From IMG/VR virus record IMGVR_UViG_3300028535_000001: 64,000 nt of DNA. One strand, 5' to 3'. The notes under the pieces are model-generated. The model saw nothing but the letters and a program-made list of their open reading frames with translations. It was not told the DNA's origin and ran no database searches. Below, piece by piece: positions 3,729 through 45,911 of the stretch. Within the stretch, counting starts at the first letter, position 1, and each line of letters begins with the position of its first letter. Source of the DNA: a virus. Made by a program: the position numbers and the translations under genes.

Positions 3729-4375
3729 TACTCTCCCGCTTTTGTATACTTCTTATATTTTTTTGTTGTTTTTTTATCCACCACTCCAGCTTGACTTTGC
3801 TCTACCATTATTTCGTTCATGTCTTTAGCATAGTCTCTTATAGCATTAACAACTGCGAAAAGACCGTCTCGTCTTTTTGGAGTTAATACATCTATGAAAC
3901 CTATTCCAGCAATTTGATTGTCGTCCACTTCCAAAATTTCTTTTGGTGGGTGTCCTGATAAAATTGATTGAAGTATATACATTGCTCCTCTTGCCTCGTG
4001 AGAATCAGCGTCTACTTCAAATTCCATGTTTTCACCTTTAAGCTGTGGTAATAACCATACTTGGCTTACACAACCATATATTCTATAACCGTTTATTCTT
4101 TTATCGTCATCAAGTTTAACTATGCCACGTCCTTGTTCTAGCATATAGTAAAACTTTTCTTTGTCATCCAATTGAGAAAAATTATGGCTCCATGTACCAA
4201 GCTTTTCCTGGATTGACATACCAGCCATTTGACTGTCGCCAAATACAGGCGTCTTCTCTGTTTCCATCATTTCTTTCTCCTCTTGTTCTGCAACTTTTAT
4301 TTCAGCATCCATATTTTTTTTAGCTGACTTTGCAATTGCTTTGGATAGTTTTTTCATACCACCTTTTATATACAT
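3728..4375 (-). CDS. sufE: SufE/CsdE-family Fe-S sulfur-acceptor protein with N-terminal extension
   Basis: IYGCVSQVWL (conserved Cys), DADS...RG, LTPKRRDGL, all typical of SufE. Confidence 0.85.
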   Translation of the reverse strand: MYIKGGMKKLSKAIAKSAKKNMDAEIKVAEQEEKEMMETEKTPVFGDSQMAGMSIQEKLGTWSHNFSQLDDKEKFYYMLEQGRGIVKLDDDKRINGYRIYGCVSQVWLLPQLKGENMEFEVDADSHEARGAMYILQSILSGHPPKEILEVDDNQIAGIGFIDVLTPKRRDGLFAVVNAIRDYAKDMNEIMVEQSQAGVVDKKTTKKYKKYTKAGE

Positions 4376-4637: not shown

Positions 4638-5222
4638 TTATTTGTTTTTAACCTTATTTATTATCTTCTTAGCTATACTCTCTGGCGTATCACCTTCTGC
4701 TTTAATAGATACGAAACCAGGTTTATCTCTGTAGTAGTCAACCACAGGACCTGTTTCTTTTTTATATAAAGCAATTCTGTCTTTAATAACATCAGGTTTA
4801 TCATCAACTCTACCTCTAGCAGTTAGTCTTTTGATAACTTCTTCCTGACTTACATCTAAAAATACCACATTATCTATATCAATACCTTTCTTTTCCATGT
4901 CTCTAACTTGTTGCATATATCTTGGAAAGCCATCAAATACAAAACCATCTGCTTTGTCAACGGCGTCAAATACAAGTTTTAAAACTATATCATTTGGAGC
5001 AAAGTGACCTTTACCTAAATTAGATAATCTTTTGGCCATTTCACCACCTTTTTCTTTCTCTTTTCTCAATAGTTCACCTGGGTATATGTGTGGTATATTA
5101 AATTCATTTGATATAAATTTTGCATATGTAGATTTACCACTGCCTGGACCACCAATTAAAATAATTTTTGGTTGTCTAGCTTCTTCTAAAAATTTGTTTA
5201 TGTACTCTATAAATGATTTCAT
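4638..5222 (-). CDS. adk: Adenylate kinase (short-lid type)
   Basis: GGPGSGKST, GELLR, FDGFPR, RGRVDD...RIALY motifs. Confidence 0.9.
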   Translation of the reverse strand: MKSFIEYINKFLEEARQPKIILIGGPGSGKSTYAKFISNEFNIPHIYPGELLRKEKEKGGEMAKRLSNLGKGHFAPNDIVLKLVFDAVDKADGFVFDGFPRYMQQVRDMEKKGIDIDNVVFLDVSQEEVIKRLTARGRVDDKPDVIKDRIALYKKETGPVVDYYRDKPGFVSIKAEGDTPESIAKKIINKVKNK

Positions 5223-5356
5223 TTTCTTTTTCTCATCATTCTCTTTTTTTTAAGAAGAAAATAAGCATATGCTTTATTACTTTTCTTTTTTCTTTTCTTT
5301 TCTTTTTCTATTGGTGCTGAATTAAATTCATACGTAGCACTGTAAATATTATTCAT
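5219..5356 (-). CDS. 45-aa very basic protein (MNNIYSATYEFNSAPIEKEKKRKKKSNKAYAYFLLKKKRMMRKRK)
   Basis: Translated by hand. TAATG overlap with the upstream gene and ATGA overlap with adk indicate translational coupling. Confidence 0.65.
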   Translation of the reverse strand: MNNIYSATYEFNSAPIEKEKKRKKKSNKAYAYFLLKKKRMMRKRK

Positions 5357-6576
5357 TATCCCTTTACCCAATCCTTACTAATCGTGAAGTTGGCTCTACT
5401 AAATTCTAGTCTATCTACAAGTTTAACTGCACCTGCTGATCTATCTACTGCAACATAACCCTCTGGATTGGTTACTCTAAAACCATTTGATGTTCTAATA
5501 AAATGACCTATACTTTGTATTTGTGATAACTTTGATATTAAAAAGTTCTTTGCATTACCTAAACTTACGTGAGAAGCTATAGCAAAATACAATGCTGATT
5601 CATTTCTATCAATCCATTTTAAATTAGTATCTAATATATCTCTATATTTTTGTTTACCTTTTTCGGTTTTTCTAGTTGCTATTTCTTCTTTTAAAATATT
5701 TCCATAATAGTCTCTGAACATTTTTTGGAGTTGTTTAATCTTACCCATATGTCCTTGTGTGTTTCTAATATAATGATTAAAGAAAGCCTTCAATCTAAAA
5801 CCTACTGATAACGAATCACTTGATCTTGACATTTCATTTAATATAGATGAAGCTTTACCTAAAGAACCTTCAGCCATTCTAATTAGTCCATCAAATCTAG
5901 ATAGTTCTCCTTTAGTAAACGTTGATGATCCAGATGTATCGGTATATCCAGCACTTGCTAACCACACTGCTGAAGAACCTGATCTACCTGTTATTGTTCC
6001 AAAACCAGCACTTAAACTTTTCATATCTTTACCATGATAAGTTGTATGAAATACAATTCCCATTCTTGCTCTTCTAATTTTTCTACCAATACTGCTACTT
6101 GCCTGTACTGCATATGTGATTGTATTTGGTGTGAAAGTTATCATGGGTTCGCCATCTATAACTTGTTGTTTTGTATCGTTTGTAAAGAGTAAATCTCCTT
6201 GGTAGATACCTCTTATTCTTAATTTTTTTAATTCTCTTAAGCAGACGTTTAATTTATCTGCAACAGGACCACTATGATTACTCATAATATCTCCCGATGT
6301 ATAATTGATTTTTGGCTTGACGTTGAATACTGATTTAGTACCAACAAAGAATTTACCGTTTTCTGGATTTATACCACATATAATAGCAGGAGCTCCGTCC
6401 CACTTGACAGACATATTTACTTTAGCTCCAGAAGACCCTACTAACATGTTTCTAACTGACTTTAGAAACCTTATAGCATTATCTCCACCTTTGGAACCTC
6501 TATTGATTATGTCATCTTCTAGATGTTCTAAATGTGTATTCTTTTCCTTTGTTATGAAACCTTTAAAATTAAACAT
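5356..6576 (-). CDS. Conserved marine T4-like phage protein (DUF6267-like) with ATP-dependent ligase-type motifs
   Basis: KNTHLEHLED start, VKWDGAP (KxDG), YQGDL, EGYV, VKLV, in the order of covalent nucleotidyltransferase motifs I/III/IV/V. Confidence 0.6.
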   Translation of the reverse strand: MFNFKGFITKEKNTHLEHLEDDIINRGSKGGDNAIRFLKSVRNMLVGSSGAKVNMSVKWDGAPAIICGINPENGKFFVGTKSVFNVKPKINYTSGDIMSNHSGPVADKLNVCLRELKKLRIRGIYQGDLLFTNDTKQQVIDGEPMITFTPNTITYAVQASSSIGRKIRRARMGIVFHTTYHGKDMKSLSAGFGTITGRSGSSAVWLASAGYTDTSGSSTFTKGELSRFDGLIRMAEGSLGKASSILNEMSRSSDSLSVGFRLKAFFNHYIRNTQGHMGKIKQLQKMFRDYYGNILKEEIATRKTEKGKQKYRDILDTNLKWIDRNESALYFAIASHVSLGNAKNFLISKLSQIQSIGHFIRTSNGFRVTNPEGYVAVDRSAGAVKLVDRLEFSRANFTISKDWVKG

Positions 6577-10542: not shown

Positions 10543-10864
10543 TTGTAAATTCTACCTTGCCGGAGTTTAGTTGTTGTTCCATTACTTCAATTAATATGTC
10601 ACCGATATAATCTATAAACTCTTGTGTATCAATCTCTTTTGATTCTGGATTGGATAGTATATCATAATCAAACTTCATTGGCAAGTGACCTTTGCTATCT
10701 TCTTCTTTTGCAAACGCAACTTTACCATACTTGTAGATTACATTTCTGTACTTGTCTTCAAGTAATTTTACCGCTGTGTAATCTGCACCAGTCTTTTGTG
10801 CAAATACAAAACGTTTTTTATTCTTCGTCTGATCCGTATCGGAATTTTTTGTTGGCATATTCAT
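10535..10864 (-). CDS. Conserved hypothetical protein between uvsX and 41 (T4 gp40 position)
   Basis: Synteny only. Confidence 0.6.
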
Positions 10865-11840
10865 CTATTTGTTTTAATACTTCTTTTGTAAAATACTTTT
10901 CTGGATCGTCATTGATAGATTTACCGAACACCTTACCTTGTGGTGTTTCAAACCTTGTTGATACTTTCTTAAAGATACCAGCTGCTTCAGCCATATCTAA
11001 AAGTCCATAATGTTTATCAAGTCCGTGTTTGTAGGTTAATTTAACGTCTATCTTTGCGTTTTCTTTTGTTAATCTAGATTTATAATTTTTACAATGTATA
11101 ATATTACCAATTACTTCAGCACCGTCTTTCTCTTTACGTCTGCTTAAATAGATGATTGATGAGGCAGCGTATTTTAATCCTGAGCCACCTCCCATTTCTT
11201 TTTGTGGGAACATAGAACCAATAACATCGTAGGTGTGATTGGTCATTATCATAGGTACATTTGCTTTACCTAATTTTAAAGTTAATACTCTAAAAGTTGA
11301 TTTGACTATTTGTGATCTAGTCATATCTCTTGTTTCTTTACCAGCGGCTGTATCTTCCATTTCTTTTGTAGTAGATAACATACCTAAACTGTCTAGAACA
11401 AACATTAAAGGTTGTCTTTTATCCTCTGGTTGTTCTAAATATTTGTCTATAATTTTTATTGATTGTGCTCTAAATTCTTGTACTGTAGAAACTGGTATAA
11501 CTACCGTTCTACTACCATCAACACCACGACCTTCAATCATGTCTTTTGATATAGCACTTTCTGATTCAAAATAAATAACACCTGCGTTTTTATTTTTGTC
11601 TAAAAAATTCTTTACAATGCCTAATGCGAAAAAGGTTTTACCTGTAGCCGCTTCTCCTGCAATTGCTGTGATTTTATTTGATGGTAATCCACCGTGAATA
11701 CTGCCTGATAATAAAGCATTAAAAGAATAAGAGCCTGTATCTATAAAACTGGTAACGTCAGCGCTATCTATTCCATCACTGACTAAACCTGCATATTCAT
11801 TTCCACTCTCTTTAATTATTTCTTTTAAAAAATCACTCAT
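10818..11840 (-). CDS. uvsX: RecA-like recombinase UvsX
   Basis: [29 protein letters not shown]. Confidence 0.95.
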
Positions 11841-11886: not shown

Positions 11887-12990
11887 TTATCTTATTATAT
11901 CTATTTTTGCCTCTGGTGTCCATATTTCTAATTCAGTTCTTAATCTATTTTGTTCTTTCAGTTTATTGTACCGAGATTCAGCTTTCTTTTTCCACCAATC
12001 TATTATATTATTTAGGTGGAATTTATCCCAATTATCGCCTTTAACTATTTTCTTTGTGTTGTCTTTTACTATATCTAGATAGTTCTTAATACCATAATCA
12101 CTAACATAGTATCTTTTTCTTTCAGTTAGCTTCTTTGCATTACTTATAGTTGTATTAAATCTTTCTAAATCACTTTTGTTTAAACTTCTCTTTATTAAAC
12201 CAATAATGGCATTTGTTAGTTTTAACTTTCTACTAGAGGCGTCATCTTTAACAAGTTTACCTACAGCACTATCAACAAACGTTGCAAGATCATGGAAAGG
12301 TTTACCATGTATCAAAGGTATAAAATCACTATCAGTTAATCCTTTGTATCTTAAATATGGTTTCATACCATCATATTGACTTGATGATTTACTATTACCA
12401 TATAGACTTGTAGTTTCAAACAATGATAAGTTCATACCATATTTGTTATTTAATTTTTCTCTTATTGTATGACTACAACATATGGCAGCCAATAGTTTAC
12501 CACCTAGATAATTAAAACCAAAAGGTTGGGTTGGTACTATTACAAATCCCATTATAGATGTTTTATTAAAACTTACTAATTCTGGTACGTGAGTTAATAA
12601 TTCATTTCTTGGTTTCATATTTATAACTGGAGAACCACATCTTATAAAACCTACCCACTGATTAGTATTCTTTTCTTTTATTGCGATCTTTAAATTTTTA
12701 CCAGGCACACTTGACATATTAGTATGAGAAGAAGTCATATTTAATAATGTATCATATGTTTCATTATCAGGTTCCAATATTTCAAATTCCATATCTTTAG
12801 GCGACATATCAAATTTAGAAAACATATCACTATCTAAAGTCATTCCAGGTAATGCAGCCGGTATATTTCCTATTTGAGATAATTTTTGATCTCTCATATA
12901 TTCATCTATACGACTAAACTTTTCAAAGTAATTATTGAATATACCAGCACAATGCAATGCTTGGTCATCTGTTAAATTTTTAGTTTTCAT
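11887..12990 (-). CDS. DUF4338 (DruA-like) family protein, paralogue 1
   Basis: [35 protein letters not shown]. Confidence 0.6.
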
Positions 12991-17995: not shown

Positions 17996-19462
17996 TTACT
18001 TCTGTTCTTTGTCAACCGGTTTTAGTCTTTTACTTAATACAAACGTTCTATTAGGGTTAACACTAACATTCATTTGTCTCATTAAATCTCTATTAATTAA
18101 TAAGTCTGATCCTGATCTTGGTCTACTATCTAATCCTACCTCTACATCTTTATAGGTAAAACCATTAAAGGTTAAATCTAATAATATTGTAGGTCTAATT
18201 TCAGAAGGTTCGTTTGTAGCATTTGCTCTAAAAATTTTACTTTGACCAAATTTAGGTTTCTCATAAGTTTTACCGTTATATTTCCATTTAACAGTTTTCT
18301 TATCTGACATAATTTTATCGGCATGTAAAGCACAAGCTTTTGATCCGTTACCACTATCAAACTTAGCTCTAACTTTAGCTACATCGGCAACGTCAACAGT
18401 TTCTAACCAACCACATTCTATAAGTGATTGTCTATCCCAATGACTTCTATCTTGAACATAATCAACAAGATATTCCATCATTTTTTCACCGTCTATTCTA
18501 CCAGATGGTTCTGGATCAGAATAATAATCCTTGTATTGGTAACCTTGATAGTCAGCACCTGATCCTGGACTACCATTGATTTCTAAAATGTATGGTTTTT
18601 TATTGTGTATTATATGGTCAACTCCTACCATATATGCCTTTGAAGCTCTTGAAGCTTTTAAAATTAGTTCATGTTCTTCATCATTTAAAACATAAGGGTG
18701 TGCCTCGGCACCTCTATGAGTATTTGATCTAAAGTCATATGAGCTATGTACTCTTTTTGTACTTGCAATAACTTTGTTATCTAAACAGAAAGTTCTTACA
18801 TCAAACTTGACAGGCATAAATTCTTGTATTAAAAGTTCAGATTCTAATTTCCACATTGCTTGTACAGTTGCAACAAGACCCTCATAACTTTCAATTTTAA
18901 TTACTCCGATACCTTGTGTACCTGTTAATGTCTTTAAGATAAGTGGAAACTTACCACCAATCATATCTATTCCAGTTCTTATATTATTCTCGTTAGATAT
19001 AAATGCTGTTCTTGGTGTAGCTATACCAAACTTTTCAAATAGTAAAGCTGACGTTAATTTGTTATCACAAGTCATCATAGCTGCTCTTGTGTTTAACATA
19101 AATGATTGTGAGTTTTGAAAGGCAGAGATTAAAGACAGTCCAGCTTCGTTCTCCACTGCACCACCTCGTGTTACAACAACGGTATCTTTACCTGTAAAGG
19201 TATGTTCACCATTCTTACCATCGTAATTATAGACAGTAAGGGTGTTCTTATCTTCGTCTTTTGCTGTGATTATAGTAGATGTAGTATTAACAATAACGCA
19301 TTTAGTCTTTTGTTTTTTACACGCCTTTTCTATAAGTTCAACAGTTGAATCCTTTTGAGGATCCTCTGAATCATTTATAGTAAGTATAGCAACCGTAATC
19401 GGTTTATCTTTACGACCTTGGTTTTGCTCTGTTATATAATCTCTAAACTTTGGTATCTGCAT
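17996..19462 (-). CDS. rimK: RimK-family ATP-grasp ligase fused to a C-terminal RimB-like (retropepsin-fold) protease
   Basis: CDNKL, PLILKTLTGTQGIGV, IQEF, DVR, FRSNTHRG, GVD, LEINGSPG; C-terminal GWLE...AKFDSG...RP...LLINRD. Confidence 0.8.
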   Translation of the reverse strand: MQIPKFRDYITEQNQGRKDKPITVAILTINDSEDPQKDSTVELIEKACKKQKTKCVIVNTTSTIITAKDEDKNTLTVYNYDGKNGEHTFTGKDTVVVTRGGAVENEAGLSLISAFQNSQSFMLNTRAAMMTCDNKLTSALLFEKFGIATPRTAFISNENNIRTGIDMIGGKFPLILKTLTGTQGIGVIKIESYEGLVATVQAMWKLESELLIQEFMPVKFDVRTFCLDNKVIASTKRVHSSYDFRSNTHRGAEAHPYVLNDEEHELILKASRASKAYMVGVDHIIHNKKPYILEINGSPGSGADYQGYQYKDYYSDPEPSGRIDGEKMMEYLVDYVQDRSHWDRQSLIECGWLETVDVADVAKVRAKFDSGNGSKACALHADKIMSDKKTVKWKYNGKTYEKPKFGQSKIFRANATNEPSEIRPTILLDLTFNGFTYKDVEVGLDSRPRSGSDLLINRDLMRQMNVSVNPNRTFVLSKRLKPVDKEQK

Positions 19463-19913
19463 TATCAGGTTTTTCTTCCTTCGGAAGAGGCTTGTCTTCC
19501 TTAATTATTTTCTTACCTATGTTATATTTAGCGGATAATATCCACTCTTTTTTCTCTTTAAATGGTAATACTTTAATTTGTGATAATGGTGCTTTGTTTT
19601 CTTTTGCTGTATCTTTGTTTAATATATTGATTAATTTCCAGTCTTCTAGTAATACTGCTATTGTATTTCTACGTTGTATATCATTATTAATTAGAGTTGC
19701 CTTCTTTCCATCTAAAGCAAAAAGTTCTTTAAAATGTACTATGTAATACTTTCCTTGTTTGTGTAATATGTGACAAGATTGAAAAAGGGTTTTATCTTTT
19801 CTACTTGCAACACCTATTCTGGTAAGTGTTTCTCTAACCTTTAAGAAATCGTCTGGTTGATTTAGAGTTACCTCTAACATCTGATCTTGTGACCACGTTA
19901 TTTCATCATTCAT
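19443..19913 (-). CDS. regA: Translational repressor RegA
   Basis: DDFLKVRETLTRIG, QSCHILHKQGKYYIVHFKELF. Confidence 0.95.
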   Translation of the reverse strand: MNDEITWSQDQMLEVTLNQPDDFLKVRETLTRIGVASRKDKTLFQSCHILHKQGKYYIVHFKELFALDGKKATLINNDIQRRNTIAVLLEDWKLINILNKDTAKENKAPLSQIKVLPFKEKKEWILSAKYNIGKKIIKEDKPLPKEEKPDNADTKV

Positions 19914-20302
19914 TTTCTTCTCCCGCCTTTGTATAAGGCTTGTTTAATTTTATCTATATGTTCTTTTGAGAGTATTTGTAGTGCTTGTCTTGCTTTATCA
20001 TTGCTGTATCCATAATACTCTTTTACATATTCCAAGTCAATCAACTTAATTTGTTTGATCCACTTCCCTCCAAATCGTTTCTTTGGTCTGATACTATTTA
20101 GTAAAAACTGAAATTGTATGTCTTTGTCCAAGAAGTGATAACCATTCATTTCATTGGCATGTGGAAGTGTATCCCAAAACATGGATAAACACTTATTAAT
20201 GATGTAGGGAGGGTACTTTTTAATCCAGGCAATATCGCTGGTCTTCAAAAGGTTAACTTTTGTTTCGTTTATAGCTTTTAAATAATCTTTTAATTCGTAC
20301 AT
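19910..20302 (-). CDS. 62: Clamp loader small subunit gp62
   Basis: YPPYIINKCLS, ANEMN, VKEYYGYS; synteny. Confidence 0.9.
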   Translation of the reverse strand: MYELKDYLKAINETKVNLLKTSDIAWIKKYPPYIINKCLSMFWDTLPHANEMNGYHFLDKDIQFQFLLNSIRPKKRFGGKWIKQIKLIDLEYVKEYYGYSNDKARQALQILSKEHIDKIKQALYKGGRRK

Positions 20303-20329
20303 AATATAAACTAGTGCCTTGAATCAATT

Positions 20330-20692
20330 TTATTTAAGTTCTGCTGTTCCGCCAGCGTCTTCTAACTTCTTCTTTAATTCTTCAGCATGTGCTATTTCAA
20401 GGTTTTCTTCAACCGTTTTAGGTAAATCTTCAACAAAAGTCTTTGCTTCCATTAAACCTAATCCTAATACTTCTTTAACAACTTTTAATACACCCATTTT
20501 CTTTTCACCAAAACTTTTTAATATAACTGTAGCTGTACTCTTTTCTTCTGAAACTGCAACAGGTGTTGGAGCAACTGCTTGTAAATTACTTGCTTGTATT
20601 CCCCACTGATCTTCCATCATTTTGGCCATATCAGCAGCTTCTTGCATAGTTAATTTACCTATTTCATTTACTAATTTGTTAATGTCTGTCAT
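20330..20692 (-). CDS. rplL: 50S ribosomal protein bL12 (L7/L12), full length
   Basis: NTD LTMQEAADMAK...WGI, Ala/Pro hinge, CTD KMGVLKVVKEVLGLGLMEAK.FVE..P...KKKLEDAGGTAELK. Confidence 0.92.
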   Translation of the reverse strand: MTDINKLVNEIGKLTMQEAADMAKMMEDQWGIQASNLQAVAPTPVAVSEEKSTATVILKSFGEKKMGVLKVVKEVLGLGLMEAKTFVEDLPKTVEENLEIAHAEELKKKLEDAGGTAELK

Positions 20693-20825
20693 TTCTCTTT
20701 GGGTGCCTACCCATATAATGCTCGGATGGTTCGTAGTTCCATCTATGTCCGTGGTGTCCTCTTACGTCAGCATACCACATTCTAAACTTAACTATCATAA
20801 CTCTCCATAATGTTCTCTTTGCCAT
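20679..20825 (-). CDS. 48-aa His/Arg-rich protein (MAKRTLWRVMIVKFRMWYADVRGHHGHRWNYEPSEHYMGRHPKRNDRH)
   Basis: Hand-translated; fills the gap between gp44 and rplL. Confidence 0.55.
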   Translation of the reverse strand: MAKRTLWRVMIVKFRMWYADVRGHHGHRWNYEPSEHYMGRHPKRNDRH

Positions 20826-20901
20826 TTCTTTTCTTTATCTCTTTCATTGATTTAAAAGGCATTTGCCTTTCTAAACATATTTAGTAAAATGTTTCCTTTC
20901 A

Positions 20902-21846
20902 TCACTTGAATTTACAATTGGCCATAATCTCTGTTAGGCAGGCGATTACATTAATTTCGTGGTCAGCCACAAAAGCTGCCTTGTACTGGTAGCCAGCAAT
21001 TATTAATATCGCTTGAGGTACGGATTTAGGTTCTAAACTTTCATATAGAACATCATAGACACCTCTGAATAGATCAGTAGCGTCCATATCTAAATGTTGG
21101 ATTACCCACTTCCTCATATTATCAAACTCTTTTTTCTTCAGGTAACCCATAAGATTCTTATAGTCTGTTTCTTTTAAATTGAATAGAATACCACTGTCAA
21201 TCTTACCACGTACAGAATATCTTTGAAGTTCGTTGATAGTTCTTCTAAAATCTGGATAATGTTTTTCAATTAACTGAGCTAATATTTTTTTATCATACTC
21301 AATTTCTTGTTCTTTTAAGATACTTTCCAAACGTTTCATAAAAGCAACAGCAGTTTTCCCTCTTTGACCATTAGAAACTTTGAAGTCAATAACAGTACAA
21401 CGACTATGTAAAGCTGGTATGATTTTGTTCTTATAGTTACAAGTAAATATAAATCTACAGTTATTATAAAAACTTTCTATGAAGTTTCTTAAAGCAGGCT
21501 GTACCGATTCGGCATTCATATAATCTGCCTCGTCAATTATGACTACTTTATGTTTTGATTCTGTATTGAAAGATACAGTTGTTGCAAAGTTTTTAATCTT
21601 ATGTCTTAACGTATCTATTTGACGGCCTTCATCTGATCCATTGACTATAATATAATCAAGGTTTAATTCTTCACATAAAGCACGAGCAACAGTTGTCTTA
21701 CCAGTACCGGCAGTACCAGTTAATAACATGTTTGGTAGTTCTTTTTTAGATAGAAATTCTAAAAAGGTATTCTTTGTATCTTCTGATAAGATACATTCAT
21801 CTATTGTTTTGGGTCGGTATTGTTCTACCCACAAAAAATCTGTCAT
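20902..21846 (-). CDS. 44: Clamp loader large subunit gp44
   Basis: WVEQYRP, GTAGTGKTT, IIDEAD, HSRC, PDFRR. Confidence 0.95.
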   Translation of the reverse strand: MTDFLWVEQYRPKTIDECILSEDTKNTFLEFLSKKELPNMLLTGTAGTGKTTVARALCEELNLDYIIVNGSDEGRQIDTLRHKIKNFATTVSFNTESKHKVVIIDEADYMNAESVQPALRNFIESFYNNCRFIFTCNYKNKIIPALHSRCTVIDFKVSNGQRGKTAVAFMKRLESILKEQEIEYDKKILAQLIEKHYPDFRRTINELQRYSVRGKIDSGILFNLKETDYKNLMGYLKKKEFDNMRKWVIQHLDMDATDLFRGVYDVLYESLEPKSVPQAILIIAGYQYKAAFVADHEINVIACLTEIMANCKFK

Positions 21847-21857
21847 TGACCAACTCC

Positions 21858-22523
21858 TTAAAATTCAGAGTCAGGTTCTAATGCAATCCAATATTGGACG
21901 TTTTTTGCTCTACTAATGAAACTAGATATTTTTGCTTTTGATATTGCTACATCATAATCATCTGGTATCATCTTAAAGTTTTCTGATTTAAAGTAAGCAG
22001 TAAACTTAACATCTGATTTTCCGATTACAGAAGACACTACGTTAGAAGTCTTGTTTTTCTTATCAGTAGCCACTAATTTAATATTTTTACCATCGCCTAT
22101 TACAGCAACATCTGGTAAATTTAAAGTTGTAACGCCTTTATGTAGTTCAGCTAAGTCATCATTTTTTAATTGAAATGAAACATATTTATCTGGCATGTTA
22201 ATCTTATTAGGTGTAAACACCGTAGATTTATCAGAGAAGAAATACTTAACTGATTTTCTTCCCTCTTTAGCTTCACTGATAGTCATTGAAGCACCACCAT
22301 TAAACGTTAGTTCAGGACTTTTAAATAAATCCAATGATCTTAAAAATTGTGGTAGATCATAGATAGCAAATTCACTATCAAATTTTTCTTTTATTTCAGC
22401 CTCTGCTAAAATATTTCTCATATTGGAAATAGTTTGTATCTTATTTCCTGGCTTAATTAAAATGTTCTGATTTATATCAGAGAAATTTTTTAACAAAGCT
22501 ATTGTGTTTGTGGACAAGTTCAT
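21858..22523 (-). CDS. 45: Sliding clamp gp45
   Basis: LKNFSDINQNI, FAIYDLPQFL, YWIALE; start at MNLS after the AGGAG SD. Confidence 0.92.
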   Translation of the reverse strand: MNLSTNTIALLKNFSDINQNILIKPGNKIQTISNMRNILAEAEIKEKFDSEFAIYDLPQFLRSLDLFKSPELTFNGGASMTISEAKEGRKSVKYFFSDKSTVFTPNKINMPDKYVSFQLKNDDLAELHKGVTTLNLPDVAVIGDGKNIKLVATDKKNKTSNVVSSVIGKSDVKFTAYFKSENFKMIPDDYDVAISKAKISSFISRAKNVQYWIALEPDSEF

Positions 22524-22561
22524 TTTATAATCACTCCTATTCATAATTTAACTTTTCTTTT

Positions 22562-22635
22562 TGGAGCGGATACTTGGTACTGCCCCAAGTTCTACAGGTT
22601 GGAAACCTATCATAATACTTTTATACGACATCCGC
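22562..22635 (-). tRNA. tRNA-Gly(TCC), CCA encoded, non-canonical D and T loops
   Basis: Cloverleaf GCGGATG/TATCCGC, ATAGG-TTTCCAA-CCTGT, CTTGG-GGCAGTA-CCAAG, U73-CCA; 74 nt. Confidence 0.88.
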
Positions 22636-22642
22636 ATTTTCT

Positions 22643-22671
22643 ATACTATATCAATTTGTTCAAAATGTCAA
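22643..22671 (-). promoter_or_regulatory. sigma70-type promoter for tRNA-Gly/gp45
   Basis: TTGACA-17-TAGTAT ending 7 nt before the tRNA 5' end. Confidence 0.7.
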
Positions 22672-23192
22672 GCCTCCAAATATTTCAAGACATTTTCTGG
22701 TGAAGATACTCCATAAGGATCCGATGGATCATTAAATTCTTTACCAGGTTCAACGAACATTTTTATTATATCACCATTGTGTACAATAGCTGCATATCTC
22801 CATGAACGGTAACCAAAACCAATGGCCTCTATGTTAACTAACATATCTAAACTCTTTGTTAGTTCGCCATTGCCATCTGGTATCATTTTAATGTTCTTGA
22901 TTTGTTCGTTGGTTTTCCATGCATTCATAACAAAAGAATCATTTACTGATATACAATAAACCTCATCTATGCCATGTTCTTTGAATTTCGTATACAGGTT
23001 GTCATAACCTGGAAGTTGTTGTGATGTACAAGTTGGTGTAAAAGCTCCTGGTAAACTGAATATAATTACTTTCTTATCTTTAAAGTAATAGTCAGTAGTT
23101 CTATCAACCCATTTACCATTGGAAAAATTACAAGCACCTGATTCGGATATATCACCTTCACGTGTTTTAAATTTTATATTCTTTATTTCCAT
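22668..23192 (-). CDS. Peroxiredoxin (Prx5/redoxin type)
   Basis: FSLPGAFTPTCT, SVNDSFVMNAW, DGNG, RSWRY. Confidence 0.92.
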   Translation of the reverse strand: MEIKNIKFKTREGDISESGACNFSNGKWVDRTTDYYFKDKKVIIFSLPGAFTPTCTSQQLPGYDNLYTKFKEHGIDEVYCISVNDSFVMNAWKTNEQIKNIKMIPDGNGELTKSLDMLVNIEAIGFGYRSWRYAAIVHNGDIIKMFVEPGKEFNDPSDPYGVSSPENVLKYLEA

Positions 23193-23195
23193 AAT

Positions 23196-23247
23196 ATTAT
23201 CTCACTTTAACATAAAATCAGGAGGAAGTCAATGCTCCCTCCCAATC
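23196..23247 (-). repeat. 52-bp promoter/stem-loop repeat, copy 1
   Basis: 50/52 identical to 24292-24343; contains a GC-rich hairpin overlapping TTGACT-17-TAAAGT. Confidence 0.9.
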
Positions 23248-23253
23248 CATTAT

Positions 23254-24222
23254 TTATTTAACTTGTACTAATTTTGACCAATTGTCTTTACCAACTACTT
23301 GTGGAAAGAAACCAGCCGCTTTCATCCAATTGGTTTTACAACCTAATTGTTTTAATCTATTAATTCCTTCATTCCAATCCTCTAAAGTTCTTTTTCTTTT
23401 TTCACTTATTGGAGATTTAGGTGTAGGTCTTGATACATGAAATATAACTTGACAAGGGTTACCGGTCTCAAGGTACTTGGTTATCATTCTATGGTAAGTT
23501 CTATAAGCACCACCTTGTTTACAAATAAATGTATGTACACCATTGGTTTCCTTACCATCATAATTATATTTAATAGACGAATCATCTTTAGACCATCTTT
23601 TTGCTTTTGATGGATTCCATTCATAGACAGCATTGTGTATACTAGCTCTTTCTTCTACTTGTCTAATAATATTTTCTATAGATTGAGTGTGTCTATTAGG
23701 ACAAAGTTTATATAAATGGTCTCTAATCTTATCACTATCTTTAGGAAAACCATGTCTATCTATTTTTACCATTATAGTTTTAACAATGTCTATTTCTTTA
23801 TTGTTAACTTTTGGTAGACCTTCATTTTCCATGGTTCTTATATCTAATAATTCACTATCTGTACAATCAACTATATCAAACCACATTTCAAAATTATCAC
23901 CATATAATTCTTCTAAAGCTATACATCTATTATAACCATATGCTAAAATATATGAATAGTCACTAGACTTATCTGGATTTTTATAAACACATGGTAGATA
24001 TTCACTTGTATTCCAACCACTAGATAAAGAGTTTTTTAAATTCTCAATATCTTTTTCGCTAGTACCATGCATACGAGCGGTGTTGCCTAATTTATCATCA
24101 ATATGAATTTTTGATAATTTTAATTTGGTTGGATTTTTTTCTATGTAAACTCCGACATTTGAAAAGTCGGGAATTGGACGCTCAAATTCTTTTTGAGCAA
24201 TTTTTTTTGTTTCTATTAACAT
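23254..24222 (-). CDS. Hypothetical protein, possible ParB/Srx-like N-terminal domain
   Basis: LKNSL..GW...LPCV...YILAYGYNRCIAL weakly recalls the ParB GxxR motif. Confidence 0.5.
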   Translation of the reverse strand: MLIETKKIAQKEFERPIPDFSNVGVYIEKNPTKLKLSKIHIDDKLGNTARMHGTSEKDIENLKNSLSSGWNTSEYLPCVYKNPDKSSDYSYILAYGYNRCIALEELYGDNFEMWFDIVDCTDSELLDIRTMENEGLPKVNNKEIDIVKTIMVKIDRHGFPKDSDKIRDHLYKLCPNRHTQSIENIIRQVEERASIHNAVYEWNPSKAKRWSKDDSSIKYNYDGKETNGVHTFICKQGGAYRTYHRMITKYLETGNPCQVIFHVSRPTPKSPISEKRKRTLEDWNEGINRLKQLGCKTNWMKAAGFFPQVVGKDNWSKLVQVK

Positions 24223-24291
24223 TTTTTTCTCCTATTGGATTATGAGTTTTCAATCCCATAAGGATTAAACAACTCTTGTTTTTATTTATAC

Positions 24292-24343
24292 ATTATCTTA
24301 CTTTAACATAAAATCGGGAGGAAGTCAATGCTCCCTCCCAATC
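24292..24343 (-). repeat. 52-bp promoter/stem-loop repeat, copy 2
   Basis: Direct repeat of 23196-23247. Confidence 0.9.
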
Positions 24344-24350
24344 TCTCAAT

Positions 24351-24797
24351 TTACTTGATTTTTATAGTTCTAGGCTTCTTTGAGTCTGGAACAATCTTCT
24401 CTAAAGATACCTTTAAAAGACCATCTTTTAGTTCAGCACCCTTTACTTCGCAGTCTTCTGCTACAGTAAATGACTTACTAAAATATCTTTTAGCTATACC
24501 TTTGTGAAGTATACCATCATTGTCCTCAACCTCTTTAGTCTGCTCGTCTTTATTAGACTTGATTGTTAGAACATTGTCAGCATAGTCAACAGTTACATCA
24601 TTTTTAGAGTATCCTGCTAATGCTAATTCAATATCATAGGTAAACGAACCTGTTTTAACGATATTGTATGGTGGATAGTTTCCCATTCTCGTAAAATCTG
24701 TATCTAACATATGTTCAAAGTTGTCAAACATACTGTCAAACCCTACGGTTATTGGTCTTAAACTATTAAAGAATTGAATTGCTTTTGAATTGGTCAT
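24351..24797 (-). CDS. hsp20: Small heat-shock protein Hsp20 (IbpA-like)
   Basis: YPPYNI, IELALAG, LHKGIAKR.F..SF, AELKDGLLKV. Confidence 0.95.
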   Translation of the reverse strand: MTNSKAIQFFNSLRPITVGFDSMFDNFEHMLDTDFTRMGNYPPYNIVKTGSFTYDIELALAGYSKNDVTVDYADNVLTIKSNKDEQTKEVEDNDGILHKGIAKRYFSKSFTVAEDCEVKGAELKDGLLKVSLEKIVPDSKKPRTIKIK

Positions 24798-24799
24798 AT

Positions 24800-24860
24800 T
24801 AACCTCCTATTGTTAAGCAAAGTTATTGTTATAGACAACCCTTAATGGCATTGTCATAGT
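24800..24860 (-). promoter_or_regulatory. ROSE-like RNA thermometer in the hsp20 5' UTR
   Basis: AACUUUGCU-loop-AGGAGGUU pairs over the SD with a bulged G (UUGCU/AGGA); preceded by a second hairpin. Confidence 0.6.
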
Positions 24861-24910
24861 TATTTATATAAGTATTAATCTTCAAATGTCAACCATCTAT
24901 ATAAAATAAA

Positions 24911-25075
24911 ATGGTAGTTTTTATATAAGGGCGAAACTACCAAAACGCTCCGCAGCTTTAGTTTGTTTTTTTAAGGTGGTGCGAAACTAAGCGCAAATGC
25001 TAAAACAATCCACCATATCCGAAGCTATAATAGCTTCTTTAACGCTGTCATAGGACTTACGAGCAGCCTTGACCA
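24911..25075 (-). ncRNA. Putative structured ncRNA with tandem pseudoknots (manA-motif-like architecture)
   Basis: Locally GC-richer intergenic segment; loop-to-downstream pairings TTAGTTT/AAACTAA and TGGTAGTTT/AAACTACCA, plus hairpin GAAGCTA/TAGCTTC. Confidence 0.6.
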
Positions 25076-25118
25076 TAATATATATATCACTTTTATAGCG
25101 TTAAATTCCATAAATTTC

Positions 25119-25319
25119 TTATAAAAATCTCTCTTGTAAACGTTTCTTCCTCTTTGCATTAGCAATTCCTTCTTTCTTTTTTCGTCTCTTTTTTTCAGAA
25201 GGTTTCTCAAAATACATTCTTTCCTTATAATTTTTAAGGAAATTATCTTTTAAATTTTTTCTTTTTAAGACTCTTAAAGCCTGTTCTACATTACCATTTC
25301 TTACATCTACTTTTATCAT
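25119..25319 (-). CDS. rpsU: 30S ribosomal protein bS21
   Basis: V.VRNGNVEQALRVLKRK...YFEKPSEKKRRKK. Confidence 0.93.
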   Translation of the reverse strand: MIKVDVRNGNVEQALRVLKRKNLKDNFLKNYKERMYFEKPSEKKRRKKKEGIANAKRKKRLQERFL

Positions 25320-29149: not shown

Positions 29150-30481
29150 CTATCTTCCTACTTGATTTAAGTACTTTCCTTTACACTCTTCCCAATTTAA
29201 GTATATCAAATCATCATAAAAATGTGATTCTTTAGAATATCTATTTGTTTTTTCTAGACTCTTTATTCTTTTAGAGGCATGTTTTTCTTTCCACACCTTA
29301 ACTAATGCTTCGGTAGACGAATCGAATCGTTTCTTTAAACCATCATCTTTTACTTCGCCTCTTAAATACTCATATGTATTCTCATATAATCTTGCAAAGT
29401 ATATACCTCTAGCATGATCTGTTTTTATATACTCTTTAGGTATACCAAGTCTTGAATAAGTAAACATATATGACCTATTTTTATGATCTCTTTTTAATGG
29501 TTGGCCATTGGCTCTTGTTGCCACATACCATTCAAAGAATTTTCTAGTATGATTTTTCTTTAACCATTGTTTAATTAAATTTTTAGTTTCTAATTGTGGT
29601 TCATATGAAACGGAACCCATAGTGAAACCCATACGTTTCCAATATTTTAAACCATCATATTGACTTAAAGTATTCGCTTTTGCCTTACCATATAAAGATG
29701 TTGTGGTAACACCAACTAACTTATCGCCATACTTTTCTTGCCATATTCTTTGTACATCATCTGATAAACATAGATATGCTAATAATTTACCACCAGTAAA
29801 ACTATAACCTAAAGGTTGTGTTGGTACAATAGAGGAACCAATAGCAGTATGATTAATCATACCACCAAATGTTTTACTATGTCTATCCCAACCAATAGCA
29901 CTGTCTCTTGGAGTTAAATCCATAAAGTCACCAGATATACAAATGACACCTAGATGTTTACCTGATCTGTTATCATTTACATTAAAGAATAGTTGTCTAC
30001 CAATATTACTATTGTTTTTCATAGTAGACAAAAACGTTCTTAATGTATTCCAGTTTTCTGATAGTTGTTGAGTTCTTACTGCTTTACCGTTAAATCTTTT
30101 TGTAGTATCGTCTGTATATTCTAATACAGGTTCTAATTTATCATAGTCTTCAGGTGATTCTGGAATCCAGATATTATTTCTAACTGTATCTATTTGAGTT
30201 CTTTGTTCAGGTGATGTTAATATTTTTTCAGTACCATACAATGTAGTTGATTCGGTTGTAGGATATTTCTTATGTACTTCTTGCCACTTTTGGAATAATG
30301 TATACTCTTGTACGGTCATTTTAGACACGTATCCAAGGTCTTTTTCTATTTCTTCTTTAAGATGTTTTAGATCAACATCTTCTACTTTAGATATATCGTT
30401 TTCTTCTTGGAATTTCTTCCACTTTTTTTCAACGCCTTCTAAATCTTGTTTTTCATGTATATCAAAGTCTTCTTTATTCAT
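29150..30481 (-). CDS. DUF4338 (DruA-like) family protein, paralogue 2
   Basis: IVPTQPLGYSFTGGKLLAYLCLS, TTTSLYG, SQYDG. Confidence 0.6.
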   Translation of the reverse strand: MNKEDFDIHEKQDLEGVEKKWKKFQEENDISKVEDVDLKHLKEEIEKDLGYVSKMTVQEYTLFQKWQEVHKKYPTTESTTLYGTEKILTSPEQRTQIDTVRNNIWIPESPEDYDKLEPVLEYTDDTTKRFNGKAVRTQQLSENWNTLRTFLSTMKNNSNIGRQLFFNVNDNRSGKHLGVICISGDFMDLTPRDSAIGWDRHSKTFGGMINHTAIGSSIVPTQPLGYSFTGGKLLAYLCLSDDVQRIWQEKYGDKLVGVTTTSLYGKAKANTLSQYDGLKYWKRMGFTMGSVSYEPQLETKNLIKQWLKKNHTRKFFEWYVATRANGQPLKRDHKNRSYMFTYSRLGIPKEYIKTDHARGIYFARLYENTYEYLRGEVKDDGLKKRFDSSTEALVKVWKEKHASKRIKSLEKTNRYSKESHFYDDLIYLNWEECKGKYLNQVGR

Positions 30482-30518: not shown

Positions 30519-31232
30519 TTACAGATTCTTACGTTTTTCGTAGAGTTTCATCTGTTTAGCAGCCTTCTTATAAGCCATATCCAGTTTCATTTTAGATACA
30601 CCATCTATAAAATTCTTACCTAATATATGATCGTATTCATGTTGGAATACTCTACTAATCATACCATCAAGGTGGCCTTCTCTTAATTGTCCATCTTCGT
30701 CTTCGTATTTAACAACTACTTTTCTAGGCCTTACTATTGATAAGAATACAAAAGGAAAGGTTAAACAACCTTCTTTCATCATTACTGTTTCCTCACTTTT
30801 TGAAATTATAAATGGATTAAAACATGCCATCTTTAACCCTTTTTCTATAGATGGATGATCGCCTAATGTAAACATATTGAAAGGCAATCCAACCTGATTA
30901 CAGGTTAAACCTAATCCACCATATTTTCTCATAGTTTTGAACATAGCGTCTGCTAATTCTTTTCTATCTTTAAAACCCTCATCTTTTAACATATCATCGC
31001 TAAAAGGTGCTATGGCTGAATTTACTCTCGGGTCTCTTGGTGGGACCAATTTTAAACCTTTTTTATCGTCCACTTCAGTGGTTCCCTTCTCCTTTATTTT
31101 GTCAGTATTTACTTGGTTTTTTGGCTTTGCCTTCATAAACGTTTGAGCATTATTAATATAATTATCCTGTTTAGGTATCTTCTCCCTTTTTGTTTGTGGT
31201 GGTCTCATTACATTTTTTTGTGTACTACCCAT
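30519..31232 (-). CDS. def: Peptide deformylase with basic N-terminal extension
   Basis: GLGLTCNQVG, EGCLT, QHEYDH. Confidence 0.92.
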   Translation of the reverse strand: MGSTQKNVMRPPQTKREKIPKQDNYINNAQTFMKAKPKNQVNTDKIKEKGTTEVDDKKGLKLVPPRDPRVNSAIAPFSDDMLKDEGFKDRKELADAMFKTMRKYGGLGLTCNQVGLPFNMFTLGDHPSIEKGLKMACFNPFIISKSEETVMMKEGCLTFPFVFLSIVRPRKVVVKYEDEDGQLREGHLDGMISRVFQHEYDHILGKNFIDGVSKMKLDMAYKKAAKQMKLYEKRKNL

Positions 31233-45238: not shown

Positions 45239-45496
45239 TTATTCCTCTCCTAATTTCTCTATTATTTCTTCATCAAAATATTGTTCTATTTGTTCTTTTT
45301 CTAAACTGTTTAGAGTAGCAACATCATCTAAAGCACTTTCAAATTTTACTACTATATTATCAGCAGTAATATTTTTGTCTTTTTCTATAATTTCAAAAAT
45401 TTCTCTAACAGCAGACTGCATAACCGGAGGTAATCCTTTATATGCATTGCTATCAAATAGTTTATTATTTTCCACAATGTCACTAACTCTCAACAT
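45239..45496 (-). CDS. Putative prohead core protein (gp68/67 position)
   Basis: Acidic; start at MLRVSD just after the upstream stop. Confidence 0.55.
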   Translation of the reverse strand: MLRVSDIVENNKLFDSNAYKGLPPVMQSAVREIFEIIEKDKNITADNIVVKFESALDDVATLNSLEKEQIEQYFDEEIIEKLGEE

Positions 45497-45500
45497 AATT

Positions 45501-45911
45501 TTATGTTTCTGTTGGTGCTTCTGCTGGAGCTTCAACTGCTGGAGTATCAACTGCTGGAGTATCAACTGCTGGAGTATCAACTGCTGGAGTTTCTGGTGCA
45601 GCTTGTACCGGTTCAGCAAATGGTTCTGCTATTTCAGGTTTAGTTTCTGCTGATAATTCTTCAGCTGATTTACCTGCTGTACCGTCAACATTTGTAATTG
45701 TTCCGTCTCTGTTGAATTGTCCTGGAGTTGCTACTTCAGGTTTTTTATCACTATGAGGTTCAACAAACATTTTACCAGCTATATCTTGTCTTCTCTGATC
45801 TAATGCGTCTCCTACTTTTCCTCTTAATGCGTCTTTGAAAGCGTCACCGGCTCCGGCATTATCGCCTGTACCTAATTTATCTATAAAGTTTTTTATTTCT
45901 TGATTTGGCAT
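45501..45911 (-). CDS. Putative prohead core protein (gp67-like) with PAVDT repeats
   Basis: Immediately downstream of the portal gene; acidic. Confidence 0.6.
   Translation of the reverse strand: MPNQEIKNFIDKLGTGDNAGAGDAFKDALRGKVGDALDQRRQDIAGKMFVEPHSDKKPEVATPGQFNRDGTITNVDGTAGKSAEELSAETKPEIAEPFAEPVQAAPETPAVDTPAVDTPAVDTPAVEAPAEAPTET
45532..45590. repeat. 15-bp tandem repeat x4 (TCAACTGCTGGAGTA)
   Basis: Seen directly; encodes TPAVD repeats. Confidence 0.9.

Follow-up and report, generated by a model that had tools for sequence, protein, structure and literature searches.

Translation-related genes among the replication genes of an uncultured T4-like pelagimyophage

Translation-related genes of marine phages have been described in several earlier studies, with which we compare here a stretch of viral DNA of 64,000 nucleotides (IMG/VR record IMGVR_UViG_3300028535_000001; the whole stretch is called the window below). 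In this window genes for the ribosomal proteins bS21 and bL12, a RimK-RimB fusion, the translational repressor RegA, a peptide deformylase and a tRNA-Gly-like gene are found among phage replication genes. Phage rimK beside regA, PolB and clamp-loader genes was reported on >100 Global Ocean Sampling (GOS) contigs, several of which carry a C-terminal DUF785/PF05618 domain (Monier, Claverie and Ogata 2008, Genome Biol 9:R106, PMC2530865). The authors took S6 as the rimK target by analogy and placed the contigs on cyanophage-like branches, pelagimyophages being unknown then (PMC2530865). The window gene shares with these marine T4-like rimK genes the domain order (ATP-grasp, then PF05618), the neighbours (regA, clamp loader, B-family polymerase) and the abundance in marine metagenomes, and there is no essential difference between them; the RimK-protease fusion, correctly called in the window by a first-pass annotation made from the sequence letters, is thus already published. 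In the Pseudomonas system (Little et al. 2016, 2020, 2025; PDB 5zct, 7qys, 9g58, 9g59), with which the fusion shares the RimK fold and a RimB-like D-T/S-G domain, RimB trims polyglutamate tails and stimulates RimK; bacterial RimBK hybrids also exist, and the hybrid tested did not glutamylate RpsF (Little et al., PMC11957791). The RimB part is N-terminal in the bacterial RimBK proteins, whereas the window fusion has the reversed order with the RimB-like domain at the C-terminus. In further contrast to Pseudomonas, the phage side lacks RimA and the bS6 of the phage's presumed SAR11 host has no acidic tail.

bS21 and deformylase belong to the core genes of pelagimyophages, and L12 occurs in some genomes of the PMP-A group (Zaragoza-Solas et al. 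2020, PMC7029224); that study makes no mention of RimK or of the tRNA-like gene. The window resembles the PMP-A group (HTVC008M, Mosig EXVC030M and metagenome-assembled genomes) in gene order and in the bS21 and deformylase core. However, the cultured HTVC008M and Mosig are without bL12, and HTVC008M has no RimK at this position, whereas the window has both. Viral bS21 and bL12 in general were described by Mizuno et al. (2019, PMC6375957), who found two ribosomal proteins on 8 contigs and a single ribosomal protein gene on >99%, and who showed that E. coli ribosomes take up viral bS21 and bL12, incorporation being demonstrated for the bS21 of HTVC008M. The likeness to the window lies in exchangeable ribosomal proteins under purifying selection, bS21 from HTVC008M among them. 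The difference concerns bL12, which in the cultured phages of that study consists of C-terminal domains only or is embedded in larger proteins, in podoviruses of <80 kb, whereas in the window it is full-length and stands alone in a T4-like genome. The gene content is mostly published already (Monier 2008, Zaragoza-Solas 2020, Mizuno 2019). New, and modest, are the finding that bS6 is an unlikely target and the apparently relaxed constraint on bL12 in this lineage; also new are a full-length bL12 clade that appears to be phage-specific and mobile between hot spots of marine phage genomes, and a conserved tRNA-Gly-like gene that is unannotated in this phage group.

Independently acquired genes or one module

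We consider it probable that the pelagimyophage replication module has taken up several auxiliary genes touching on translation independently of each other, and that they do not constitute one coordinated cassette. For the survey of relatives we used the 80 nearest IMG/VR contigs anchored on gp44, onto which the window proteins were mapped. RimK follows RegA in 46/46 contigs with that flank visible, bS21 was found in 18/20 related contigs and is a near-core pelagimyophage gene, and bL12 is present in 8/77 contigs, all of them with a gp44 at least 99% identical to that of the window; its position between gp44 and gp62 is a hypervariable slot of 2-1262 bp. Because conservation differs to this extent, the genes do not appear to be one module but a near-core layer (bS21, RimK-RimB, deformylase, RegA) to which bL12 was added as a recent accessory.

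The family models agree with all gene calls of the first-pass annotation (bL12, bS21, RimK-protease fusion, RegA, deformylase; minus strand, Table 1). It had further described these genes as interleaved with core replication genes and acting in concert. The genes are indeed present, but they are spread over ~13 kb with peroxiredoxin, Hsp20, a 322-aa protein, CobS, CobT and a DruA-like gene between them, and the very unequal conservation given above speaks against a concerted set. Co-occurrence of bS21 and bL12 in a phage is real here and in print already; in our survey bL12 is confined to a few contigs.

A coordinated ribosome-remodelling module, in which bS21, bL12, deformylase and a RimK directed at the bS6 tail would be selected together for phage-specialised ribosomes, is in our opinion highly unlikely. 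It would fit that all four genes are intact in the window and in 9-10 near-identical contigs, that they lie on one strand within this distance, and that bS21, RimK and deformylase are each under purifying selection. On the other hand, bL12 is rare in related slots and RimK and bS21 are found almost everywhere, unrelated genes and promoter-like sites separate the members, the bS6 of SAR11 has no acceptor tail (see below), and bL12 and bS21 differ in origin, with 42-44% and 52-57% identity to SAR11, respectively.

The window is assigned to the replication/early-gene module of an uncultured T4-like pelagimyophage of the PMP-A type because it shares its backbone gene order with the annotated regions of Mosig and HTVC008M. 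Long open reading frames (ORFs) between 14.8 and 33 kb are all on the minus strand. The closest DNA match of the region is Pelagibacter phage Mosig EXVC030M (72% identity over 55% of the query), followed by HTVC008M and then by T4-like cyanophages. The order common to the window, Mosig and HTVC008M is DNA polymerase, ferredoxin, DUF6561, [RimK], RegA, gp62, [variable slot], gp44 and gp45, and it continues in all three with Hsp20, bS21, CobS, CobT, a DUF4338/DruA-like gene, [deformylase] and SbcC. Neither RimK nor deformylase is found at the corresponding positions of HTVC008M, and the window has a peroxiredoxin and the 322-aa protein as extras between gp45 and Hsp20.

Within the near-core layer, bS21 also matches PF01165 (48.8 bits vs 27) and phrog_21469 and is up to 52-57% identical to the bS21 of Pelagibacteraceae. 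Being host-like, it would most likely replace or top up the host bS21 on the 30S subunit during infection. The deformylase scores slightly below the cut-off of TIGR00079 (98.4 bits, cut-off 103.95), its catalytic motifs GLGLTCNQ, EGCLT and HEYDH are intact, and it carries a basic N-terminal extension of ~85 aa; the ratio of nonsynonymous to synonymous substitution rates (dN/dS) against relatives is 0.05-0.19. RegA is a standard T4-like gene with 80.6% identity to the RegA of Mosig, and it shares its first 4 nt with the end of gp62. Both deformylase and RegA are ordinary core genes of this phage group.

Table 1. Location of translation-related genes and their neighbours in the window, with the supporting family matches
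Feature	Coordinates	Strand	Length	Evidence
RimK-type alpha-L-glutamate ligase with C-terminal RimB-like retropepsin domain	17996..19462	-	488 aa	PF08443, E=1.2e-36
RegA translational repressor	19443..19913	-	156 aa	PF01818, E=1.4e-45, profile 1-122 of 122
gp62 clamp-loader small subunit	19910..20302	-		PF16790; syntenic in Mosig and HTVC008M
Full-length ribosomal protein bL12	20330..20692	-	120 aa	TIGR00855, 105.6 bits vs 84.4
orf48, very basic	20679..20825	-	48 aa	stop overlaps bL12 start
gp44 clamp-loader large subunit	20902..21846	-		PF00004, PF21328
gp45 sliding clamp	21858..22544	-		PF09116
tRNA-Gly(UCC)-like gene	22565..22635	-		RF00005, 35.8 bits vs gathering 29, focused scan
Ribosomal protein bS21	25119..25319	-	66 aa	TIGR00030, 50.4 bits vs 28.95
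Peptide deformylase	30519..31232	-	237 aa	PF01327, E=1e-34, 119.8 bits vs 22.8

The RimK-RimB fusion and its substrate

The ligase part of the fusion comprises approximately residues 1-330 (18473-19462) and the protease domain residues 331-488 (17999-18472) with the motif D369-S-G-N. The first 20 nt of the gene are shared with the end of RegA, and its stop is followed by a terminator-like hairpin (17994-17971). The protein passes the RimK family subfamily model TIGR00768 (148.1 bits, cut-off 143.4) and fails NF007764, the equivalog model of the 30S ribosomal protein S6--L-glutamate ligase (106.8 bits vs 331). An AlphaFold (AF2) model of the fusion (pLDDT 87, pTM 0.82) returned RimK of E. coli and Pseudomonas as the top structures in Foldseek (5zct, 7qys, 5zk6, including RimK bound to RpsF), with a TM-score of 0.78-0.86 over the target. 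Among the related contigs RimK comes in two deeply divergent types, 31 window-like and 15 Mosig-like (27-32% identity), and its dN/dS against relatives is 0.14-0.25.

Matched directly, the C-terminal 158 aa hit PF05618 only weakly and below threshold (E=1.3e-3, 19.1 bits, cut-off 27). An exhaustive search with this domain yielded 231 representative proteins, mostly of 450-500 aa and bearing it C-terminally. Among 45 aligned full-length homologues, positions D369 and G371 are invariant, T/S370 and N372 nearly so, and 32 of the 45 match PF05618 themselves, with a best E of 1.8e-19. Searched as a profile, the domain furthermore finds the PF05618 structures PDB 9g59, 9g58 and 2pma (E between 4e-14 and 8e-12). 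Judged from these sequence comparisons, the D369 region corresponds to the retropepsin D-T/S-G signature and membership of the RimB-like family (PF05618, Zn_protease/DUF785) is firm despite the weak direct match, because both the homologues and the profile search support it. The fusion would accordingly join an ATP-dependent alpha-glutamate ligase to a polyglutamate-trimming retropepsin.

With respect to its substrate, the first-pass annotation had proposed that initiation is controlled through the bS6 tail, which the host proteins do not bear out. The host sample consisted of two Pelagibacter genomes found via the bL12 scan and then of 41 genomes of their family (Pelagibacteraceae). The last residue of bS6 is K, N, S, Q, I or R in 29/32 Pelagibacteraceae proteins, and a Glu-Glu terminus, the acceptor tail expected with NF007764, occurs in none of the 32. 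The rimK_fam model is over its cut-off in 1/41 of the genomes and PF05618 (RimB) was found in 0/41. Because the Glu tail is missing from SAR11 bS6, and because the sampled genomes yielded no RimB and a RimK over the cut-off in one case only, bS6 appears to be an unlikely target of the phage RimK-RimB in SAR11. Three points weigh against this reading: 3/32 bS6 proteins do have one terminal Glu, following a Lys; the 41 SAR11 genomes sampled are incomplete; and SAR11 as host is itself inferred from the relatives of the phage alone. More likely than bS6 as a substrate would be some other protein of host or phage, or free poly-alpha-glutamate. A phage RimK-RimB long assumed to be directed at S6 would then have no obvious S6 acceptor in SAR11, which turns the substrate into a testable question.

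Glu-Glu C-termini are found in two proteins of the window only, the UvsX/RecA-like protein (...GSDEE, 10818-11840, minus strand) and a 126-aa protein (45239-45619). UvsX is the sole annotated window protein with this ending. Either of the two might be a RimK acceptor, which we regard as a lead and not as evidence. The acceptor tail of E. coli bS6 reads ...GDSEE, which the end of UvsX resembles.

Another reading concerns the time of action: the fusion could be packaged into the head by means of a T4-type N-terminal capsid-targeting leader, be injected together with the DNA and reach a host target already in the first seconds of infection. Many proteins of this family begin with M-x(2-5)-aromatic-x-x-hydrophobic-hydrophobic-x-E, for example MQIPKFRDYITE, MEVPKFKEFITE and MKVPSFNEFLSE, a motif which we take to resemble the T4 internal-protein/capsid-targeting leader and the cut site of the gp21 prohead protease. 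A regular expression for the leader fits 4/59 N-termini in the window compared to 1.3% of internal Met positions, which is no more than suggestive, as the pattern was picked after seeing the sequences; such N-termini (aromatic-x-x-hydrophobic-hydrophobic-x-E within the first 12-15 residues) are those of RimK and of the ORFs at 4638-5222, 5356-6576 and 10818-11840. In addition, a homologue in Yersinia phage YerA41 (MW570730, 29211-30632, 473 aa), which matches residues 89-471 of the fusion and hence includes the C-terminal domain, is annotated as 'structural protein' and bears a eukaryotic glutathione-synthetase note. The YerA41 record, however, lists ribonucleotide reductase too as 'present in phage particle', so its proteomics are not clean. 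Moreover, the RimK gene stands at the end of the early/middle replication operon, where it overlaps regA, and no TATAAATA late promoter is found near it. On balance we regard packaging of the fusion as unlikely. Still less probable is the wider scheme in which a head-packaged, injected RimK-RimB writes and trims polyglutamate tails on a target other than bS6, in a host lacking both the Rim system and the acceptor tail on bS6, and, together with the phage bS21, with bL12 where present and with a tRNA-Gly of rewired elbow, provides the phage with a translation apparatus that is partly its own.

Position, origin and selection of bL12

The bL12 of the window consists of an N-terminal dimerisation/uL10-binding domain (PF16320, 32.5 bits vs 25), a hinge and a C-terminal factor-binding domain (PF00542, 86.5 vs 25.9), and its residues 4-120 align end to end with bL12 chains in the PDB. 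The earlier statements that rplL sits between genes 44 and 62 and that the protein keeps its L10-binding domain are thus both confirmed. Its context is phage clamp-loader genes and not rplJ-rplL-rpoB. On sequence grounds we identify the gene as a bL12 homologue with a putative ribosomal function. The gene would be a recent, lineage-restricted insert into the gp44-gp62 slot, where Mosig and HTVC008M carry a 2OG-Fe(II) oxygenase instead, and is probably co-transcribed with the clamp-loader genes. Its product would most likely exchange into the uL10 stalk through the intact N-terminal domain; a complex prediction with the C-terminus of Pelagibacter uL10 and two phage bL12 N-terminal domains gave a score of 0.07, which counts neither for nor against this.

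Full-length relatives of this bL12 form a graded series in marine metagenomes, from 94% down to ~50% identity. The contexts that were checked are phage-like: between nrdA and nrdB, beside gp59 and the late-transcription co-activator, and together with a family A DNA polymerase and a lysozyme on one contig. No match to the window bL12 was found in 50,697 GenBank phage records, and it belongs to no PHROG family. In a scan of one genome per prokaryote species the best cellular bL12 among the matches listed shows 50% identity, while two Pelagibacter bL12 among these matches show 42-44%. The tree separates 39 phage-type from 72 cellular bL12 sequences on a branch with 100% SH-aLRT. The phage clade has the signature GLGLMEAK.FVE.LPK as opposed to GLGLKEAKDLVE.AP in cellular proteins and keeps the conserved factor-binding positions, residues K65, K70, L80, E82 and K84 being invariant or nearly so. 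By its phylogeny the window bL12 belongs to what appears to be an old phage-specific clade whose members move from one hot spot of marine phage genomes to another. Two points count against this view: the metagenomic bL12 in the tree are 'viral' mostly by similarity, with the context checked for nine, and a closer cellular donor could exist beyond the matches listed.

Over the long range dN/dS of bL12 is 0.10-0.37, with the C-terminal domain most constrained (~0.15), which indicates purifying selection. These values are close to the pN/pS (the corresponding ratio for polymorphisms) of 0.35 given for viral bL12, that of viral bS21 being 0.10 (Mizuno et al. 2019, PMC6375957). The picture changes among the nearest relatives, where several observations tell against a working stalk protein. 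Nonsynonymous to synonymous counts of bL12 are here 5:2, 9:2 and 9:0 (about 5-10 vs 0-4), compared to a dN/dS of 0.04-0.15 for the neighbours gp44, gp62 and RegA, and a Fisher test of the bL12 counts against the pooled neighbouring genes gives p=0.017. A G77E exchange in the near-invariant GLGL motif is a common bL12 variant, present in eight contigs. Because of the excess of nonsynonymous changes and this variant, bL12 may be drifting in this lineage, or serving a purpose outside the stalk. In addition, Mizuno et al. could not affinity-purify ribosomes with tagged viral bL12 (PMC6375957).

Taken further, bL12 would be a neutral or decaying passenger here, or a free decoy that titrates translation GTPases, and not a working stalk protein. 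Beside the counts within the micro-clade and the G77E variant, the fast turnover of the gp44-gp62 slot and the absence of a PHROG family and of a cultured-phage match agree with this. We nevertheless find it doubtful: the ORF is intact in the 9 contigs with the whole gene (a tenth ends at the contig edge), conservation extends to both domains and to the factor-binding residues, the start of the gene shows translational coupling with orf48, and long-range selection is purifying and tightest in the C-terminal domain. The sign of decay named beforehand, a dN/dS near 1, is seen for bL12 alone among these genes, and there in the nearest relatives (9 nonsynonymous vs 0-2 synonymous changes) but not in the long-range values. 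We prefer to see bL12 as old and probably functional as a family, and as weakly constrained in this lineage compared to core genes.

The small orf48 next to bL12 carries the motif RMWYAD.RGHHG.RW.YEPS. It is found in 44/77 gp44-gp62 slots, commonly without bL12, and an unrelated phage contig (L013) has a homologue (3985-4140) immediately upstream of its bL12 gene. The family has no counterpart in Pfam or PHROGs, and we found none there that would make it a uL10 remnant or a known ribosomal protein. As a partner of bL12 it was rejected, since it is present in most slots without bL12.

The tRNA-Gly-like gene and neighbouring features

A tRNA had been claimed for the region, although ARAGORN and a whole-window Rfam scan at gathering thresholds gave no tRNA in the window. 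The window does hold a tRNA-like gene (Table 1) despite these initial scans, because a focused Rfam scan and a comparative alignment overturned them. The gene encodes its CCA end and has the T-loop GGCAGUA and the D-loop AAAAGUA, so that neither the canonical T-loop (T54-Psi55-C56...A58) nor the G18-G19 of the D-loop is found in it. A promoter-like sequence TTGACA-17-TAGTAT is located just upstream (22671-22643). With nhmmer we identified 55 copies in related loci; three of these loci have two copies each. All 55 have an NCC anticodon (UCC, ACC, GCC or CCC), and ARAGORN rejects all copies but one among the outputs shown. Across 29 sequences compensatory changes occur in 11/19 predicted pairs, while the odd T-loop and D-loop are conserved. 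In some relatives a second, tRNA-Gly(GCC)-like gene resides inside the gp44-gp62 slot, beside a UCC copy elsewhere. The gene is best described as a conserved putative tRNA-Gly with a non-canonical elbow.

Copies were also found in both cultured phages. In Mosig (MT647606, 7780-7856) the copy lies beneath a coding sequence annotated as 'hypothetical protein', and in HTVC008M (NC_020484, ~91138-91212; L002, 13578-13652) it adjoins the bS21 gene. HTVC008M has been tabulated with 0 tRNAs (Zaragoza-Solas et al. 2020, PMC7029224). Even in these model phages a conserved tRNA-Gly-like gene has thus gone unannotated.

Operon boundaries in the region are inferred, because a scan for sigma-70-like promoters yielded 40 sites compared to 37.8 expected from shuffles and is not above expectation. 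DruA/DUF4338-like proteins are encoded at 29150-30481 (minus strand; PF14236, E=5.9e-16) and at 11887-12990; they lie within the replication module, and Mosig and HTVC008M carry them at the same position. The 322-aa protein (23254-24222, minus strand) has no match in Pfam, PHROG or NCBIfam and is missing from some otherwise identical contigs (L003, L005). Compared to near-identical relatives its nonsynonymous to synonymous counts are 22.5:3.5 and 19.5:2.5, and promoter-like sites TTGACT-17-TAAAGT are present on both flanks of its gene. Matches to the T4 late-promoter sequence TATAAATA are not above chance in total count, but 13/14 in the window fall on the coding strand. One of them (24283-24290, minus strand) is located just upstream of the 322-aa ORF and another (24861-24868, minus strand) just upstream of Hsp20.

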